In this document: in pieces, positions 3,245 through 24,579 of the stretch
Layout: each line of letters starts with the position of its first letter
How positions within the stretch are numbered: position 1 is the first letter of the stretch
Origin: Solirubrobacteraceae bacterium
Lineage (GTDB): Bacteria; Actinomycetota; Thermoleophilia; Solirubrobacterales; Solirubrobacteraceae
Direction: 5' to 3'
NCBI GenBank assembly: GCA_036782855.1
Contig: DAIPYF010000004.1
Coordinates: forward strand, 1 to 32,875
DNA length: 32,875 bases
The notes under the pieces: generated by a model
The model's input: only the letters and a program-made list of their open reading frames with translations
What the model was told of the DNA's origin: nothing
The model's database searches: none
Made by a program: the position numbers and the translations under genes

Positions 3245-3943
3245 ATGCGCGTCGCCACCGGTATCACCGCAGCCCTGCTCGTCGCCGCGTTTCCCGCCGG
3301 GGCGCCTGCGCGCACGGACGCTCCGACGCCGAAGACCGCGCGCGCGTTCACGGCCGCCCACGGGCGCACGCTGAGCCTCGGGGTCCGCGGCAGGGACGTG
3401 CGCCGGCTCCGCCGCGACCTCGTCCGGCTCGGGTACCTGCCGCCGCGCGCGTTCGGACCGACCTACGACGAGCGCGTCATGCACGCCGTCACCGCGCTCC
3501 AGAAGTGGGAGAACCTTCCTCGTGACGGCACCTTCGGCACGAGCGCACGCCGCGCGATCAGGCGTCTGCGCATGCCGCGCCCCGAGCTGCAGCTCAACCG
3601 GAGGCTGCGCGCCGAGGTGCTGCTCGACCGGCAGCTGCTGCTGATCATCCACGGCGATCACGTGATCCGCGCGGTGCCGATCTCGAGCGGCGTGGGCGGC
3701 GGCACTCCGGCCGGCACGTACAGCGTCTCCTCCAAGTCGCCGAACAGCTGGTCCAAGCGCTTCAAGGTGTGGCTGCCGTGGGCGAGCTACTTCAACGCCG
3801 GGATCGCCTTCCACGGCTACCCGGACGTCCCGGTGACCGCGGCCTCGCACGGCTGCGTTCGCGTGCCGCTGAAGTTCGCGCGCGAGATCTACCGGCAGCT
3901 GCCGGTCGGCACCCGCGTCGACGTGATCACGACGAGCTTCTAG
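3245..3943 (+). CDS. Secreted L,D-transpeptidase (YkuD domain) with N-terminal peptidoglycan-binding domain
   Basis: 232 aa. Signal-like N-terminus MRVATGITAALLVAAFPAGAPA. PG_binding_1-like segment RRLRRDLVRLGYLP...VTALQKWENLPRDGTFG. YkuD catalytic motif FHGYPDVPVTAASHGCVRVP. Confidence 0.85.
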   Translation: MRVATGITAALLVAAFPAGAPARTDAPTPKTARAFTAAHGRTLSLGVRGRDVRRLRRDLVRLGYLPPRAFGPTYDERVMHAVTALQKWENLPRDGTFGTSARRAIRRLRMPRPELQLNRRLRAEVLLDRQLLLIIHGDHVIRAVPISSGVGGGTPAGTYSVSSKSPNSWSKRFKVWLPWASYFNAGIAFHGYPDVPVTAASHGCVRVPLKFAREIYRQLPVGTRVDVITTSF

Positions 3944-4680
3944 ACCGCGCCGCGCACCGCGCCCACGACGTCGCCGTCGACGGCGCGCCGCGCACCGGGA
4001 ACCAGCTCCGCCAGCGCGTCGGCGGCCTCAACCGTCGCCGGGGACGATCCCGGGCCGGTGACGACGACCAGGGGCTGGGTGATCGCGCGCAGGGCGCCGC
4101 GGGTGACGGGCAGCGTCGCGAGCCCGGCGACGTCGGCGTAGAACGCGGCGTGCGCCGTCTCGGCCCGTTCGCGGTCCGCCTCACCCACGCGCCCGCCGAG
4201 ATGCCGGGCGACGCCCGCTCGCGGCCCGCCCTCGGCGACCGCGATCCGCAGGCCCTCCTGCCAGTCCGACAGCTCGCGCGCGGCGTCGGGCGCCAGCGCG
4301 TACAGGGGAGGGTCGACGAGGACGGCGGCGCGCGCGAGCTCGCCGTGACGCAGCAGCAGGTCGAGCGCGATCAGCGCGCCGAAGCCCTCACCCGCGACGA
4401 GCGCACCCGTCGCGTCCAGCCCGCGCAGCACCGCGGCGGCATCCTCGGCCTGCTCCGCCACGGTCGTCCCCAGATACGGCTCCGGCGCATCGCTCCCGTC
4501 ATACCCGCGTCGCGAGTACGTGATCACGCGCGCGCCGGCGCCCGCCGCCGCGATCTCCATCGCCGGCGACGCGAGCGCGATGTGGTCGCTCGCGAGCCCG
4601 TGGATGAGCAGGACCGGTGGGCCCGCCCCATGCTCCGCATACGCCAGGTCGACGCCCGCTCCGGTGACGATCGGGGACAC
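3940..4680 (-). CDS. Alpha/beta-hydrolase-fold protein (catalytic Ser apparently absent)
   Basis: Track ORF 3940..5337 trimmed to the in-frame GTG at 4680 (VSPIVTGAGVDLAYAEHGAGPPVLLIHGL...). Upstream codons are Arg-rich and overlap other genes. The typical HG oxyanion region is present, but the nucleophile elbow reads GEGFG instead of GxSxG. The start is uncertain because no SD is visible. Confidence 0.7.
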   Translation of the reverse strand: MSPIVTGAGVDLAYAEHGAGPPVLLIHGLASDHIALASPAMEIAAAGAGARVITYSRRGYDGSDAPEPYLGTTVAEQAEDAAAVLRGLDATGALVAGEGFGALIALDLLLRHGELARAAVLVDPPLYALAPDAARELSDWQEGLRIAVAEGGPRAGVARHLGGRVGEADRERAETAHAAFYADVAGLATLPVTRGALRAITQPLVVVTGPGSSPATVEAADALAELVPGARRAVDGDVVGAVRGAV

Positions 4681-18704: not shown

Positions 18705-21497
18705 ATGTCGCTCTCCGCGTTCACCGATGCGCGGCGCCTCGGCGCCGTCCCCGCAGCGCTGCTGCTCGCGCTGCTGCTCGCGCTCCTCCTGGCGCCCGTC
18801 GCGCAGGCGGGCAGCTTCACCGTCCGCGCCTGCGATGCGACGAACACGAATCGCTCGTGGACGGCGGTCGGCGATACGAACCTGATCGCCTCGGACGCGT
18901 CGTGCCTGGCCGACGCCATACGCGGCATGAAGGTCCGCAACAGCCTGCGCGCCCCCGGTGGGGCTCCGGTGCTGGCGCCCCAGACCGTGCTCGGCGGGCT
19001 GCAGGTCACGGCGACGAACGGCACCGCCATCGTCGGCCTGCACGCCGATGCGACCGCGTACGACGAGATGGGCAGTTCGGGCGTGGAGGGCTGGCGGTCC
19101 GGGATCCGCGTCGACGCCAGGCACGACGTCTGGTGCGCCTTTCAGCAGGGGTGCTCGTGGATCGGTCCGCCGACGCGGCGGATCGACCTCGGGCTGAACG
19201 TCGGAAGCGTCCAGCTGATCGCGTTCTGCTGGCTGATGACGGGCTGCCAGCGCGACCGCGTGCGCGCGGCCGCCACGCTCAAGGACATCACGATCGACGT
19301 GCGCGACGACCTGCCGCCCGCGCTCACGGTGAAGCGCGGGGGCCTGTGGGGCGGCGGGGCGTGGCTGCACGGGAACGCGTCACTCGGGATCGACGGCGGG
19401 GACAACGCGGGCGTGCGCTTCCTGACGATGGAGGCGGGTGGACTGCACTTCGGCGGGCGCGAACTGCCGTGCGACTACTACACGATGCACCCCTGCCCGG
19501 GCGAGGCGTCCCTCGACGCCTCGATCGACACGAACCGCCTGCCCGACGGCCCGAACACCGTCGCCGCGCGCGTGACCGACGCGGGCGGCACCGCGGTCGA
19601 GCAGCGCTCGACCGTGTACGTGGACAACGGCGCGCCGACCGTCGGCACACCCGAGGCCCGCGGTGGCTCGGACTGGCGTGCCGCGAACGTCTTCGAGCTC
19701 GGGATCGACGCGCGCGACGTGGCCCGCGGGTCGGGCGTGCGCAGCGTGGCGTGGGAGGTGTGCCGGCTGGATGGCACGGGGTGCTTCTCCAGGAACGCCG
19801 CGGGCTCACCGTCGAGTCTCGCTGTCTCGGTCCCCGGTGGCGGTGAGTGGAAGGTCCGCGCCTGGGCCACCGACGCCCTCCGCGAGGGTCCCAAGAGCGG
19901 CTGGTCGGCGGCGCTCCGGTTCGACCCCGAGGCACCGGGCGCCGCACGTGTCGACGCCGGCGACCGGTGGACGAGCGCGGCCGACGCGGCGCGCGTGTCC
20001 GTCGATCTCCCCGGCATCGAGCCTCGCGGCCCCTCCGGCATCGCCGGCTACGCGGTCGCCCGCGGCGACGCGGACCCGGGGACGGCCGTCACCCACCGCG
20101 GCGAGCGCGCCGTCGTCGACCTCGGAGCGCTGCCCGAAGGCGTCACGAAGGTCCGCGCCCGCGCGATCAGCGGGGCCGGCGTCTCGTCCGGCCGCGTCGG
20201 CGAGGGGCTCGTGCGGATCGACCGCACCCCGCCCGGCGTCCGGCTGAGCACCGACGGCGCGCCGCTGATCGCCTCCGAGGGCGAGTGGCTGCGCCAGGGG
20301 GTGCGGCTCACCGCGCGCGCGACCGACCAGGCCCAGCTCTCGGGCATGGATCCCGCTCCCGAGGGCGAGCCGCTCACGCGCGGCGGCTACCTCGAGTACC
20401 AGGTGGACGACGCGCCGGCCGTCCGTGTGCGCGACGACCTCGTCACCGTCGACCTCCCCGACGACGGGCTGCACGTCGTGACCGTCCGGGCCGTCGACCG
20501 GGCCGGCAACGTCAGCGACCCGCAGCGCGCGACCTTTCGCGTCGATCGCGGCGCGCCGTCCGGGACCGTCGAGCGCATCGACCACCTCGCGCCGCGGCGG
20601 CTCCGCGCGACCGTCGCCGAGGAGTGCATCGACTCCGTGCTGCTCGAGCTCCGCGCCGAGGGCGGCCGGGAATGGAAGGGCTACCCGGCGCAGGCCGAGA
20701 AGCGCGCCGTCACCGGCGTCGTGCCCGACGACCGCCTGCCGGCCGGCGACTACGTGGCGCGCTTTCGCGTCCGCGACTGCGCCGGGAACGAGGGGTTCAT
20801 CTACTACGGCAGCGCGGTGTATCCCCTGGGCCTGCGCCTGCCGCTGCGCGACACGCTCGTGCTCGACGCCGGGATCACCGCCGGCCGCGCGCGCGGCGCC
20901 GCACGCGCCACCGTCCGCACCGGCACGCCCGTGCTCGTCCGCGGGCGCCTCACCACCGTCGACGGGCGCTTCGTGACCGGGCGGCGCGTCGAGTTCCAGG
21001 AGCGCATCGGCACCGGGGACTGGCGCCTGCGCGCAGCGCGCGTCACCGACGACACCGGACGCGCGTCCGCCACGCTGCGGCCCGGCCCGAGCCGGCGCAT
21101 CCGGCTCGTCGTCGCGGGCACCGAGCAGACCATCGGTGCGGCGAGCCGCACGCTGGCCGTGGCCGTCCCCGCGCGGGCGACGCTGCGCGCGAGCCGCCGG
21201 AGCCTGCGCAACGGGCAGGCCGTGCGCTTCACGGGCCGCATCCTCGGGGGGCACGTGCCCCGCAGCGGACGCGAGCTGGAGCTGCAGGGCTACAACCCGC
21301 TCAAGGGCCGCTGGCAGCCCGTTCGCACCCAGGGACTGCGCACGACCCGCACCGGCCGCTACGGCACCACGTACCGCTTCACCGCGACGGTCGGGGCGAC
21401 CGTCACGTACCGCTTCCGCGTGCGCGTCGCGCCGCGGCCGGACCACCCGTTCGCCGAGGGGTTCAGCCGCGCGGTCCGCGTGACCGTCCGCGGCTGA
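18705..21497 (+). CDS. Large secreted Cys-rich protein with Ig-like/beta-sandwich repeats, unknown function
   Basis: Track ORF 18657..21497 trimmed to ATG 18705, which is preceded by AAGGAAGG 7 nt upstream. Signal peptide LGAVPAALLLALLLALLLAPVAQA. There are 12 Cys, mostly in the N-terminal third. Repeated segments of the type ...VTVRAVDRAGNVSDPQRATFRVDRGAP... are typical of bacterial Ig-like domains. Confidence 0.8.
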   Translation: MSLSAFTDARRLGAVPAALLLALLLALLLAPVAQAGSFTVRACDATNTNRSWTAVGDTNLIASDASCLADAIRGMKVRNSLRAPGGAPVLAPQTVLGGLQVTATNGTAIVGLHADATAYDEMGSSGVEGWRSGIRVDARHDVWCAFQQGCSWIGPPTRRIDLGLNVGSVQLIAFCWLMTGCQRDRVRAAATLKDITIDVRDDLPPALTVKRGGLWGGGAWLHGNASLGIDGGDNAGVRFLTMEAGGLHFGGRELPCDYYTMHPCPGEASLDASIDTNRLPDGPNTVAARVTDAGGTAVEQRSTVYVDNGAPTVGTPEARGGSDWRAANVFELGIDARDVARGSGVRSVAWEVCRLDGTGCFSRNAAGSPSSLAVSVPGGGEWKVRAWATDALREGPKSGWSAALRFDPEAPGAARVDAGDRWTSAADAARVSVDLPGIEPRGPSGIAGYAVARGDADPGTAVTHRGERAVVDLGALPEGVTKVRARAISGAGVSSGRVGEGLVRIDRTPPGVRLSTDGAPLIASEGEWLRQGVRLTARATDQAQLSGMDPAPEGEPLTRGGYLEYQVDDAPAVRVRDDLVTVDLPDDGLHVVTVRAVDRAGNVSDPQRATFRVDRGAPSGTVERIDHLAPRRLRATVAEECIDSVLLELRAEGGREWKGYPAQAEKRAVTGVVPDDRLPAGDYVARFRVRDCAGNEGFIYYGSAVYPLGLRLPLRDTLVLDAGITAGRARGAARATVRTGTPVLVRGRLTTVDGRFVTGRRVEFQERIGTGDWRLRAARVTDDTGRASATLRPGPSRRIRLVVAGTEQTIGAASRTLAVAVPARATLRASRRSLRNGQAVRFTGRILGGHVPRSGRELELQGYNPLKGRWQPVRTQGLRTTRTGRYGTTYRFTATVGATVTYRFRVRVAPRPDHPFAEGFSRAVRVTVRG

Positions 21498-21511
21498 GGA
21501 GCCCCAGAACG

Positions 21512-21541
21512 CCGAGAGCCCGCCGGTGGGCGGGCTCTCGG
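21512..21541 (+). terminator. Strong hairpin terminator after the secreted-protein gene
   Basis: CCGAGAGCCCGCC-GGTG-GGCGGGCTCTCGG. This is a perfect 13-bp stem with a 4-nt loop, 15 nt after the TGA at 21495-21497, followed by GGCTCAGGTCTT. Confidence 0.7.
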
Positions 21542-21550
21542 GGCTCAGGT

Positions 21551-21717
21551 CTTGGGCGGTGTGGCGGCGCCTTGAGACTCATCACGCCGCCTTCGGCGGC
21601 GGCGCTGCCTTGGGCGGTGTGGCAGCGCCTTGAGACTCATCACGCCGCCTTCGGCGGCGGCGCTGCCATGGGCGGTGTGGCAGCGCCTTGAGACTCATCA
21701 CGCCGCCTTCGGCGGCG
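21551..21717. repeat. Three head-to-tail copies of a 58-bp hairpin-containing unit (non-coding minisatellite)
   Basis: Units lie at 21551-21608, 21609-21666 and 21667-~21717. Units 1 and 2 differ at one base. Unit 3 differs at positions 2 and 16 and then diverges in its last ~8 nt. The unit is cttgggcggtgtggc[g/a]gcgccttgagactcatcacgccgccttcggcggcggcgctgc. Confidence 0.9.
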
Positions 21718-21738
21718 TGTCCTGCCGGGGGGCCGTGG

Positions 21739-22620
21739 CTAGGCGGCCTCGCGCAGGGCCGCGACGCGGTTCTGGCGGGCGAGGCGGTTCAGCGCGCGCT
21801 CCTCGAGGCGCTGGGCCTCCGCGGTGCTCACGCCGAGCTTGCGACCGGTCTGGGCGACCGTGTGCGGCTGCTCGCCCTTGCGCCCGAAGCGCAGCTCGAT
21901 GACCTGACGTTCCTCGGCCGGCAGCTCCGCCAGCGCCTTGTCGAGCTGGTCGGCGACGTCGTCGCGGCCGACCTCCTCCTCGGGCGTGAGGGCGTTGCTG
22001 TCGAGCAGCTCGCCGAGTGATGCCGAATCGTCGTCGCCGACGCGCGCGTCGAGGCTTGCGGGACGCGAGTCCAGCTTGCGCAGGCGCTCGACCTCGTCCG
22101 GCTCGAAGCCGGTCTCGGCCGCGATCTCCTCAGCGGTCGGGTCGCGCTCGAGCTTCGCCGCCAGGTCGGCCGCGACGCGGTCCACCTTGCGGGTCTGCTG
22201 CGCCACGTTCGCGGGCAGGCGGACCGTGCGGGCCGTGTTGTCCAGGCCGCGCTGGATCGCCTGGCGGATCCACAGCGTCGCGTAGGTCGAGAAGCGGAAG
22301 CCCTTGCGCCAGTCGAACTTCTCCGCGGCGCGGATCAGGCCGATCATGCCCTCCTGGACCAGGTCGGACATGCCGAGCCCCAGTCCCTGGTAGCGGCGGG
22401 CGATCGAGACGACGAGGCGCAGGTTGGAGTTGATCAGCAGCTCCTTGGCCCGCAGGTCGCCGCGCTCGATGCGCTTGGCGAGTTCGAGCTCCTCCGCCGG
22501 CCGCAGCAGGCGGTACTGCGCCGCGCGGCGCAGGAGCTGGTCGACCGGGTCGGCGACCGTGGTGGGCTCGCGGATCTCGTCCGGAAGGTTCTTCGAAAGT
22601 GTCAGTGTGGTGAGTTCCAT
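21739..22620 (-). CDS. Sigma-70 family RNA polymerase sigma factor, principal-like (group 1/2-type regions 1.2-4.2, no region 1.1)
   Basis: 293 aa. Region 2 is [65 protein letters not shown]. Region 3 is [13 protein letters not shown]. Region 4 is [15 protein letters not shown]...[25 protein letters not shown]. Confidence 0.9.
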
Positions 22621-22641
22621 ATATCCGATCCTCGAAGTCGG

Positions 22642-22670
22642 ATTTTAGCGCAAAGTGGTTGCGGATGCAA
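22642..22670 (-). promoter_or_regulatory. Candidate sigma-70-type promoter for the sigma-factor gene
   Basis: The minus strand reads TTGCAT (22670-22665), a 17-nt spacer, then TAAAAT (22647-22642). This would give a ~15-20 nt leader containing GAGGA before the ATG at 22620. Confidence 0.55.
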
Positions 22671-23061
22671 CGTCCTGCTCCGATCCGCGACACCGGTCAC
22701 CCGTCGTTGACGGGCATCCGTGCCTTCCGGAGAGGGGTGCGACTGCGCAAGCCGCGAGCCCGCGCATACTTCCGTACGGTCGTAAAGCACACCTCAAGCC
22801 TGACGGCGCGCCCGGGCCACGTACGGATTCCTACACCGCGGGTTCGCGAATGATACGGCAATTCCTGCGATTCTGCAGGGCGGGGGACGGGCATGGCACC
22901 GGTGGAACGGCCGCGCGGGCGAAAAGGAGCGGTGAACGCGCCGGGATGGCGCGTCCGCGGGCGCCGGCTGCGGGAAATCCCCATCCCCGGCGGCGGCTCG
23001 CGGGAGTAGGCTCGCGGGCAGGAGAGGGGGCGCCTCCGGATGGGGCGCCACGACGAACGAC

Positions 23062-24579
23062 ATGCGACAGCTCACGAGCCTCGACGCCCAGTTCCTGGCG
23101 CTCGAGAACAACAGGACCCACGGCCACGTCGGCAGCCTGGCCGTCTATGACCCGGCGACGGCGCCCGGAGGCGTCGTCACGGTCGGCGACCTGCGGCGAA
23201 TGCTGCGCGAGCGCCTGCACCTGCTGACGCCGTTCCGGTGGCGGCTCGTCGAGGTGCCGTTCAGCCTCGACCACCCGTTCTGGGTCGAGGAGACCGAGGT
23301 CGACCTCGACTACCACGTGCGCGAGATCGCGCTGCCGGGCCCCGGCGACCTGCGTCAGCTGGCCGAGCAGAGCGCGCGCATCTTCGAGCGCCGCCTCGAC
23401 CGCAGTCGCCCGCTGTGGGAGATGTACCTCATCCACGGCGTGGACGGCGGATCGAAGGTCGGCCTGCTGTCGAAGGTCCACCACGCTGCGCTCGACGGCC
23501 TCTCCGGTGCGGAGATCCTCGTGACGCTCATGGACCTGGAGCCCCAGGGACGCGAGATCCCGCTGCCCGAGCCGGGGCGGGTCAAGGACACCGTGCCGAG
23601 CCGCTTCGAGCTGCTCGCCCGCGGCCTCACCGCCACGCCTCGCCACTCGGCCAAGGCGCTGCGCGCGCTGCCGACGACCCTCCCGAACCTCGACCTCGTC
23701 CCGACGCTGCGCAGCATGCCCGGCGTCAACGTCGTCTCGAGCGCCGCCCGCCGCGTCGCGGAGCTGCTGCCCGGCCAGCACGACGACCTCCTCGTCGAGC
23801 GGATGCTCGCCCCGAAGACGAGCCTCAACCGGCGGATCTCCGCCCACCGGCGCTGCGCGTTCACGACGGTTTCGCTGAGCGACGTCAAGCGGATCAAGAA
23901 CCACTTCGGCGTGACGGTCAACGACGTCGTCGTCGCGATCACCGCGGGCGCGCTGCGCGAGTGGCTGCTCGTGCACGACGAGCTGCCCACCGACCCGCTG
24001 CTCGCCATGGTCCCGGTCTCGGTGCGCCTGCCCGAGGAGTTCGGCACGTACGGCAACCGCGTGTCGATGATGACGGTGCCGATCCCCACCAACGAGCACG
24101 AGCCCGCCCGGCGGGTGCAGGCCGCGCACGAGGCGATGGACCACGCGAAGGCGCGGCACTCGACCACCCCACGCATGCTCCTGGAGGAGGCCAACGAGGG
24201 CATCCCGCCGTTGATGCTCGCCCGCACGGCGCAGACGCTGCTGAACGTCGCCGCCGCCGGGACACTGCACCCGCCGCTGAACGTCGTGATCTCGAACGTC
24301 CCGGGCTCGCCGGTCCCGCTCTACTTCTGCGGCGCCCGTCTGGAGGCCAACTACCCGCTGTCGGTGATCACCGACGGGATGGGGCTGAACCTCACGATCC
24401 TCAGCTACGAGGACCGCATCGACTTCGGGATCGTCGGGGACCGCGAGGAGGTCCCGGACGTGTGGTTCCTCGCCGAGGAGGTGCAGCACGCCTTCCAGGA
24501 GCTGCTCGACCTCGTGCCGCGCAAGGCGGCGCCGAAGAAGAAGGCCGCGCGCAAGCCCAAGGCCACGCGCGCGGCGTAG
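23062..24579 (+). CDS. Wax ester synthase / acyl-CoA:diacylglycerol acyltransferase (WS/DGAT)
   Basis: 505 aa. The N-terminus is LTSLDAQFLALENNRTHGHVGSLAVY. The catalytic HHxxxDG motif is KVHHAALDGLSG. The C-terminal half has NDVVVAITAGALREWL and VISNVPGSPVPLYFCGA. The tail is Lys-rich: PRKAAPKKKAARKPKATRAA. Confidence 0.9.
   Translation: MRQLTSLDAQFLALENNRTHGHVGSLAVYDPATAPGGVVTVGDLRRMLRERLHLLTPFRWRLVEVPFSLDHPFWVEETEVDLDYHVREIALPGPGDLRQLAEQSARIFERRLDRSRPLWEMYLIHGVDGGSKVGLLSKVHHAALDGLSGAEILVTLMDLEPQGREIPLPEPGRVKDTVPSRFELLARGLTATPRHSAKALRALPTTLPNLDLVPTLRSMPGVNVVSSAARRVAELLPGQHDDLLVERMLAPKTSLNRRISAHRRCAFTTVSLSDVKRIKNHFGVTVNDVVVAITAGALREWLLVHDELPTDPLLAMVPVSVRLPEEFGTYGNRVSMMTVPIPTNEHEPARRVQAAHEAMDHAKARHSTTPRMLLEEANEGIPPLMLARTAQTLLNVAAAGTLHPPLNVVISNVPGSPVPLYFCGARLEANYPLSVITDGMGLNLTILSYEDRIDFGIVGDREEVPDVWFLAEEVQHAFQELLDLVPRKAAPKKKAARKPKATRAA

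Follow-up and report, generated by a model that had tools for sequence, protein, structure and literature searches.

What is the array of three nearly identical 58-nt repeats that separates two convergent genes of an uncultured Solirubrobacteraceae species, and does it differ from the single stem-loop that related species carry at the same place? The array lies at positions 21551-21717 of contig DAIPYF010000004.1 of a metagenome-assembled genome (assembly GCA_036782855.1); the analysed stretch of 32,875 nt is called the window below. On one side of the array is a gene of a secreted protein with an Ig-like domain, on the other side is a gene of a sigma-70 family sigma factor (the sigma gene). 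A previous reading of the same DNA, made from its letters alone (the sequence-only reading), offered four possible roles: an amplified terminator module, a minisatellite of a mycobacterial or variable-number type, a small structured RNA, and a protein- or RNase-binding array. We consider it probable, at roughly 0.8, that the array is a locus-specific variable number tandem repeat (VNTR) within one Solirubrobacteraceae species, which arose through tandem duplication of a piece of about 58 nt of the spacer between the convergent genes.

Tandem Repeats Finder (TRF) reports 21551-21717 as an array with a 58-nt period, 2.9 copies, 98% matches and no indels. Its score of 320 is the highest in the 32.9-kb window; the runner-up array scores 82. 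The three near-identical head-to-tail units between convergent genes, together with the differences between them that the sequence-only reading had listed, were thus recovered:

21551-21608, unstranded: repeat unit 1, farthest from the sigma gene; position 16 is G, and the half of hairpin B (see below) that the unit holds has no partner.

21609-21666, unstranded: repeat unit 2, identical to unit 1 at 57 of 58 positions, the sole difference being G/A at position 16.

21667-21717, unstranded: repeat unit 3, nearest the sigma gene, 51 nt long in the TRF register.

Unit 3 departs from unit 2 only by T->A at position 2 and then passes into the unique flank TGTCCTG. Taken as a full 58 nt (21667-21724) in a repeat search within the window, it shows 86% identity, with the divergence in the last 7 nt. 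The 31-mer core CTTGAGACTCATCACGCCGCCTTCGGCGGCG occurs three times, versus no occurrence in 100 shuffles. The G+C content of the array (71%) is near that of the surroundings (71-81%). The array is non-coding, as had been proposed, for a 58-nt period shifts the frame; the open reading frames (ORFs) that cross it (e.g. 21630-21902) were rejected as genes, being frame-shifted repeats of one peptide in antisense overlap with the sigma gene.

The main evidence comes from other contigs of the same species, which were found by an identical or near-identical sigma protein. There are eight of them (L001-L005, L010, L036 and L075), with 98.96-99.84% nucleotide identity to the window over 0.5-15 kb. Three copies with identical single-nucleotide polymorphisms (SNPs) of the units, in the same order, are found in the window, L001, L010 and L075; these come from different samples and assemblers (L001 and L075 are SPAdes-style NODE contigs, L010 is a k127 contig), and L005 and L036 are fragments of the three-copy type. 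Two copies are found in L002 and L003, each of which lacks one 58-nt unit and is exactly 58 nt shorter. The spacer from the sigma stop codon to the next conserved hairpin (hairpin T, see below) is 199 nt in the three-copy form vs 141 nt in the two-copy form. No contig with one copy or with four copies was seen among the contigs of this species that were looked up. Several de Bruijn contigs end inside the first unit, as would be expected of a tandem array longer than the k-mer; of the eight contigs, two break off within the array. The copy number of the unit varies within a population that is less than about 1% diverged.

The elements that make up the units and their surroundings are the following:

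21585-21601, unstranded: hairpin A, copy 1, 7 bp, CGCCGCC-TTC-GGCGGCG, with GAA as the sigma-sense loop; dG is -12.8 kcal/mol.

21643-21659, unstranded: hairpin A, copy 2, 7-bp form.

21699-21707/21711-21719, unstranded: hairpin A, copy 3, 9-bp form CACGCCGCC-TTC-GGCGGCGTG; dG is -17.1 kcal/mol.

21571-21584, 21629-21642 and 21687-21700, unstranded: the linker or tail CTTGAGACTCATCA, which in the sigma sense reads UGAUGAGUCUCAAG and lies directly 3' of hairpin A.

21601-21609/21621-21629, unstranded: hairpin B, copy 1, 9 bp, GGCGCTGCC-11 nt-GGCAGCGCC, at the junction of units 1 and 2; dG is -18.3 kcal/mol.

21659-21668/21678-21687, unstranded: hairpin B, copy 2, 10 bp, GGCGCTGCCA-9 nt-TGGCAGCGCC, at the junction of units 2 and 3; dG is -19.4 kcal/mol.

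21512-21524/21529-21541, unstranded: hairpin T, a perfect 13-bp stem CCGAGAGCCCGCC-GGTG-GGCGGGCTCTCGG.

Hairpin A, including its 9-bp form in unit 3, is where the sequence-only reading had placed it. The same is true of hairpin B (21601-21629 and 21659-21687), though its second stem has 10 bp and not 9, and of the perfect 13-bp hairpin that precedes the array, though the distance between them is 9 nt and not 10. The tail is the sole relatively A/U-rich stretch nearby in this G+C-rich region.

The spacers of related species, read in the sigma-sense orientation, tell where the unit came from. Only the stretch from the sigma stop codon to hairpin T varies among the relatives, from 29 to 199 nt, and it takes several forms:

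L067, L070 and L071 (92% identity over 2 kb): a single copy in 84 nt, namely the spacer GGCAGGACA, hairpin A, the tail GAUGAAUGUCAAGG, GGCGCCGCCACUCCGCCCAAGACC, and then hairpin T.

L054 (86% identity): hairpin A once, identical in sequence.

L055, L056, L057, L066 and L068: one hairpin A with other stem sequences.

L039-L049, L053, L073 and L074: an unrelated short hairpin, CGCGCCC-TCA-GGGGCGCG, instead.

L058, L062 and L063: nearly no spacer.

L051, 10883-11002: a different tandem repeat, about 35 nt x3 (ACGGCCCCCTGGCAGGACACGCCGCC..AGGT), which takes in the spacer and ends in hairpin A, whose 5' half it includes.

L050, 10883-10995: a degenerate second copy of the hairpin with its tail about 38 nt downstream, and a 13-nt duplication (CACGGCCCCC[GT]GG).

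The spacer of the L067 type is the window spacer minus two units (199 - 116 = 83). Unit 1 together with the sigma-proximal flank is the counterpart of the ancestral single copy and is colinear with the L067 spacer. This colinearity implies a local duplication of resident sequence and not an insertion. It also bears out the proposal of an amplified module, since the close relatives carry exactly one hairpin A with its tail here. Some close relatives have a spacer of 29-47 nt without any hairpin A, and two further relatives have short spacers. The duplications in L050 and L051 are different from the 58-nt array and independent of it, and they hit the same spot. The site is a recurrent hot spot of tandem duplication, and the 58-nt array is one species' version of it.

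The duplicated piece contains a stem-loop that is much older than the array. Copy 3 of hairpin A is the original one: it lies directly downstream of the sigma gene and begins 19 nt past the stop codon. Covariation was assessed in an alignment of 11 orthologues against 500 column shuffles, with the partner slid by 1-3 columns as a control. Across the orthologues 94.9% of cells are paired, vs about 30% in the slid controls; compensatory double changes occur at three of the nine pairs (in eight cells), and the covariation score was reached by none of the 500 shuffles. The stems found among the orthologues include CACGCCGCC, CACACCGCC/GGCGGTGTG, CAGGACGCC/GGCGTCCTG and CGTCGCC/GGCGACG. The covariation, a check that the sequence-only reading had called for, points to an old and conserved structure, and we regard hairpin A as an ancient, structurally constrained 3' stem-loop of the sigma gene. 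The tail 3' of it holds the pattern UGA..U.UC (TGA..T.TC at the DNA level, invariant in the orthologue alignment). In relatives with short spacers the tail sits directly between hairpins A and T; it follows hairpin A in the sigma sense, and its complement follows hairpin T in the opposite sense. Such an A-tail-T layout would be as expected for paired terminator-like hairpins of convergent genes.

Two minor observations concern hairpin A and its tail in relatives. In L064 (3883-3931) the stem-loop after the sigma gene is GCGCCGCC-TTC-GGCGGCGC with the tail ACTCAAGACTCATC; the loop and the 9-mer AGACTCATC are opposite in orientation to those of the window in the sigma sense (GAA loop, GATGAGTCT), and the order of the elements is kept. 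This suggests flips of the loop or of a segment in place, if the ambiguous alignment is read correctly. Several relatives (L052, 2043-2056; L068, 1429-1442) carry GATC or GATCGATC in the hairpin A tail, at the place of GATGAGTC in the window. In most of these loci a gene of a D12-class (Dam-like, PF02086) adenine methyltransferase lies about 4-7 kb off, e.g. at 15394-16509 of L050; this may be a coincidence.

Hairpin T is single and occupies the same place at every orthologous locus examined; it was seen at 31 fetched loci, e.g. at 10927-10948 of L039 and 4270-4290 of L058. In the window an imperfect outer helix extends it to 21504-21549, and its dG is -29.3 kcal/mol as an isolated RNA. Its arms (sigma-sense GAGAGCCCGCC-loop-GGCGGGCTCTC) are nearly unchanged among relatives that are about 80-99% identical to the window, and substitutions in the stem are single ones confined to a few low-coverage or divergent contigs. 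The loop of 3-6 nt and all the surroundings vary freely. Unchanged arms amid a variable loop and variable surroundings mean that hairpin T is conserved by sequence and not by structure alone. It was considered as a dispersed palindrome and rejected as such, there being one occurrence per locus. It is a conserved terminator-like hairpin common to both convergent genes.

Two side observations were made around hairpin T. In L065 (3001-4008) the sigma ORF is called at 335 aa; it continues across hairpin T (3935-3956) and overlaps the neighbouring gene in antisense. The usual sigma stop codon is missing there, which could be a real mutation or an assembly error. In L058 (4291-4455), and also in L059 and L061, an additional conserved non-coding segment of about 165 nt (GGGCTGCCGCGCCCGGCGCAGCAGTCGAACCCGGGTTCGGGCC...GGAATAGGGAAACCGGAGC...) lies between hairpin T and the stop codon of the Ig-like gene. 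It has no Rfam match at E <= 0.1, and a diverged copy of it is present in L063 (1302-1405).

Unlike hairpins A and T, which single-copy relatives also have, hairpin B is absent from these relatives and confined to duplication junctions. Of its two arms, the 5' one (sigma-sense GGCGCYGCC) is already present in the single-copy forms, and the 3' one, GGCAGCGCC, is found only at unit junctions, where the ancestral flank GGCAGGACAC now reads GGCAGCGC-C. Hairpin B is new and was born at the junction.

The junction and linker variants also allow the history of the array to be outlined. The two-copy junctions differ from each other, with the loop ending in ...CAA in L003 and in ...CAT in L002, and both versions occur in the three-copy array. 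We suggest at least two independent copy-number changes as the simplest account. At one linker position all three units of the window, like the two units of L003, carry G; L002 carries A in each of its units, and so do the outgroups L054 and L067. As the junction features are common to all haplotypes, the first duplication must be older than the haplotype split; hence the G variant spread among the units by expansion and contraction or by gene conversion. Uniformity within haplotypes and difference between them are the marks of concerted evolution, which the units appear to have undergone; recent amplification or concerted evolution was what the near-identity of the copies had suggested at the outset. 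Still older rounds may have left traces as well. Inside the unit, the loop and 3' arm of hairpin B, CACACCGCCCAAGGCAGCG, form a degenerate copy of hairpin A, CACGCCGCCGAAGGCGGCG (16 of 19 positions identical), and the sigma-proximal flank CCACGGCCCCCCGGCAG is weakly similar to the unit end CCACACCGCCCAAGGCAG, a likeness that is modest on direct reading. Both similarities suggest earlier duplications, and imperfect direct repeats around the module as the substrate of slippage or recombination.

The following course of events would account for the array. The duplicated piece comprises hairpin A, the conserved, relatively A/U-rich tail and about 20 nt of the downstream spacer. The first duplication probably occurred by replication slippage or unequal recombination; the substrate may have been a pair of direct repeats of weak similarity, one on either side of the module (sigma-sense CCACGGCCCCCCGG... 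and CCACACCGCCCAAG...). The junction would then have gained complementarity to the end of the preceding unit, giving hairpin B, and a second duplication of the already modified unit would have led to three copies. The transcript of the sigma gene would meet hairpin A up to three times, and two junction hairpins as well, before it arrives at hairpin T; read-through from the opposite gene would meet the same structures. Hairpin A with its tail may terminate the sigma transcript itself or stabilise its 3' end, with hairpin T as a shared backstop, and the added modules can at most be redundant sites of pausing or termination or barriers to 3' exonucleases. By analogy, they could help to position polymerase collisions between the convergent genes, as stem-loops between convergent genes of E. 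coli are reported to do along with bidirectional termination (bioRxiv 10.1101/2022.10.23.513370).

In VNTRs, e.g. those of Mycobacterium tuberculosis, the copy number shifts through strand slippage or unequal recombination, which is a standard source of such variation in bacteria (PMC12817950). The array has the defining properties of a VNTR or minisatellite: a unit in the range of about 10-100 bp repeated head-to-tail, variation in copy number, and an origin in local duplication. Like other VNTRs, it is intergenic and consists of near-identical, homogenised copies that number two or three in close genomes. Its peculiarities are that it is known from one locus of one uncultured species, that the unit is a terminator-like stem-loop, and that new hairpins appeared at the junctions. 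Of the earlier suggestion of a MIRU- or VNTR-like minisatellite (MIRU, mycobacterial interspersed repetitive unit), the VNTR part therefore stands, with two or three copies in the species. The most economical view is that the array would be a near-neutral by-product of a duplication-prone hairpin region, at most mildly beneficial, because the relatives work with one module or none, the copy number is unfixed, and there is no U-tract. No evidence of a function beyond that of redundant 3' hairpins was seen. The sequence-only reading had itself envisaged that a unit found nowhere else and not conserved in relatives would reduce the array to a recent local duplication of a terminator. This is largely what emerged, with the nuance that hairpin A itself is conserved and covaries.

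Several points weigh against this account. The two-copy contigs are short-read assemblies of the MEGAHIT style (k141), in which a collapse of tandem repeats is possible in principle; countering this, L002 is a distinct haplotype, and the junction k-mers of L003 are absent from the three-copy sequence. Extra copies elsewhere in this genome, of which this contig and short metagenome contigs were scanned, are unlikely but conceivable. A consensus scan of 21200-22000 returned no hairpin followed by a T-run, so that the word "terminator" rests on position and structure. The likeness to intrinsic, bidirectional and tandem terminators lies in the GC-rich stem-loops right after the converging stop codons, in the serial hairpins, in hairpin T being common to both genes and in the conserved structure of hairpin A; a stable GC-rich stem-loop just past the stop codon is present in the form of hairpins A and T. 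The difference is that the U-rich tract immediately 3' of the stem was not found in the same scan, the tail UGAUGAGUCUCAAG being only relatively A/U-rich, and that the serial hairpins are a recent duplication of one. Finally, the pairing of hairpin B is better than expected. When the 41 nt outside hairpin A were shuffled with their dinucleotides preserved, only 1.4% of the shuffles gave another perfect stem of 9 bp or more. One base pair of hairpin B also differs between haplotypes in a compensatory manner, being T:A in the window and L003 and C:G in L002. This hints at selection or at a templated mechanism and not at pure drift. It could reflect selection or, equally, a templated correction of the quasi-palindrome type at replication.

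Hairpin B brings us to the alternative that survives best, namely that the array was selected as a reinforced terminator or insulator, whose serial hairpins cut read-through, polymerase collision and antisense interference between the convergent genes. In a variant of the same idea the hairpins would stabilise the 3' end of the sigma mRNA. Either way, the copy number would tune expression. Perfect pairing of hairpin B after the duplication, improbable by composition alone, and its compensatory pair are what selection would leave behind, although hairpin B of L002 contains an A.C mismatch and is weaker (dG -15.3 vs -18.3 kcal/mol). What was duplicated is precisely the conserved 3' stem-loop with its tail, and in several related species duplications made this spacer longer, each time independently; yet other close relatives manage with one copy, or with the short spacer devoid of hairpin A, and within the species itself the copy number is unfixed. 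The stem-loops of E. coli mentioned above (bioRxiv 10.1101/2022.10.23.513370) offer a precedent for such a role, against which stands the missing U-tract. With both variants taken together, we hold selection to be improbable, though worth keeping in mind. A more elaborate version is doubtful to a greater degree: the array would be a selected, copy-number-tunable 3' device, in which reversible gain and loss of modules and hairpin B set the leakage between the sigma gene and the surface-protein gene.

A functional structured RNA, either derived from the 3'-UTR or independent, is quite unlikely, and so is a set of sites to which a protein or RNase binds. The predicted folding is strong: a 251-nt region folds better than its shuffles on both strands (z = -4.8 on the + strand and -7.0 on the - strand). 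The folded stretch takes in the conserved hairpin T too, and the z-scores are inflated by it and by the tandem palindromes. The sigma-sense RNA is predicted to form hairpin A (9 bp), an unpaired linker and hairpin B, followed by alternative pairings among the repeated GGC/GCC-rich arms, so that a hairpin-linker-hairpin layout recurs along the array; the linker, which has the near-palindrome TGAGACTCA, is kept beside hairpin A in relatives. However, all these parts derive from an ordinary single-copy spacer, and the repeated state, variable in copy number, is limited to one species. An Rfam cmscan of 20500-23500 on both strands gave no matches with E up to 1, and a consensus scan of 21200-22000 gave no sigma-70 promoter-like site. 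Thus neither of the two RNA- or protein-based roles suggested initially fared well: the structured RNA matches no known family, nothing positive was found for a binding array, and for both the repeated state is not conserved beyond one species.

Two particular RNA candidates, and one of another kind, were considered and rejected. A hammerhead ribozyme came into question since CUGAUGAG directly follows hairpin A in relatives; however, neither an Rfam match nor a GAAA after the next helix was found. The three AAGGC motifs per unit resemble a CsrA sponge (a CsrB-like RNA), and the motif reflects the internal degenerate copy of hairpin A. A CRISPR array does not fit, as the 58-nt period recurs over its full length with 98% identity, which leaves no unique spacer.

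It is very unlikely that the unit belongs to a dispersed repeat family which is clustered here at one site. The 58-bp length and the intergenic position are reminiscent of MIRU, the palindromic content is reminiscent of repetitive extragenic palindromic (REP) elements, and several short-read contigs break within the array, as they do at dispersed repeats; such breaks are equally expected for a tandem array exceeding the k-mer. A search for a 19-nt core of the unit, with the known variant allowed, in 185,579 species genomes yielded 20 single matches in unrelated phyla with 7-18 of 39 flank positions identical; with flanks at this random level the matches are due to chance. The representative of the species in this genome collection, if any, lacks the 19-nt core. 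A 21-nt core was found among 241 million JGI metagenome records only in L036, i.e., at the same locus, and viral contigs gave one chance match to the unit core. A nhmmer search with two units against 64 sequences (542 kb, including about 20 kb around each orthologous locus) gave no significant matches other than those at the orthologous site, directly downstream of the sigma gene. As the unit and the single-copy spacer of the orthologues are colinear, nothing was inserted from elsewhere. Searching for the unit elsewhere and for a change in its copy number, as the sequence-only reading had recommended, thus led to one locus with two or three copies.

Comparison with the individual families agrees with these searches. 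REP elements are extragenic GC-rich palindromes at gene ends, present in hundreds of dispersed copies, and their clusters alternate in orientation. Miniature inverted-repeat transposable elements (MITEs) have many dispersed copies, terminal inverted repeats and a target-site duplication. The array shares with REP elements and bacterial interspersed mosaic elements (BIMEs) the GC-rich extragenic palindromes at gene ends that are able to form 3' stem-loops of mRNA, but its unit is confined to a single locus, where all copies run head-to-tail. Both REP/BIME and MITE membership were rejected, given scans without dispersed copies and a unit colinear with the ancestral spacer. MIRUs are described by Supply et al. 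(1997), as summarised in PMC5056196, as occupying 41 scattered loci, being free of obvious palindromes, pointing the same way as the co-directional genes beside them and including small ORFs. The array is like them in its 40-100-bp unit, direct tandem arrangement, intergenic position, actinobacterial host and variable copy number. It differs in its restriction to one locus, in the dominance of palindromes, in lying between convergent genes and in a 58-nt period that shifts the frame. MIRU membership was rejected: the unit is not interspersed in the scans and has a 7-9-bp palindrome per unit and a 9-10-bp junction hairpin. The MIRU half of the earlier minisatellite suggestion falls on the same grounds.

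An assembly artefact, with either the tandem copies or the differences in copy number being spurious, is hardly credible: all the assemblies are metagenomic, the repeat is longer than the k-mers and several contigs end in it, but the identical three-copy array with the same ordered unit SNPs is found in four independent assemblies by different assemblers, and the two-copy versions have SNP haplotypes of their own.

As a locus-specific VNTR, the array is a ready strain marker (two vs three copies plus the unit SNPs) for an uncultured Solirubrobacteraceae population of soil and sludge, seen in activated-sludge and other metagenomes, and it accounts for the breaks just past the sigma gene in short-read contigs of this organism. 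It is a natural example of a conserved 3' stem-loop region that seeds repeated independent duplications (58 nt x2-3 here, about 35 nt x3 in L051, about 38 nt x2 in L050), and of a duplication junction able to evolve a new hairpin. If the copy number did affect termination, the locus would provide a natural series of one, two and three modules for studying whether hairpins without a U-tract terminate or stabilise transcripts in high-G+C actinobacteria. If the idea of a tunable 3' device were true, it would be a contingency-type switch at the 3' ends of genes and not at promoters or the 5' ends of coding regions. As it stands, the array is an ordinary bacterial minisatellite, young and species-specific, and the general picture is unchanged.

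The array is flanked by two genes:

18705-21497, + strand: the upstream convergent gene, whose product is a secreted protein of 930 aa with a bacterial Ig-like domain; the reading frame is open as of 18657 and closes with TGA at 21495-21497.

21739-22620, - strand: the sigma gene, which encodes a sigma-70 family protein of 293 aa comprising regions 1.2, 2, 3 and 4; the stop codon TAG is at 21739-21741.

The product of the + strand gene has a match to Pfam Big_13 (E = 3e-10) and a weak OmpL47-type domain, and in orthologous contigs the gene is called at 923-930 aa. The distance from the array end to the sigma stop codon is 21 nt, close to the initial estimate of about 20. Just upstream of the sigma start (22620), the G+C content at 22550-22700 falls to 54-55% vs 70-80% elsewhere, and this segment probably corresponds to the sigma promoter and 5' leader.

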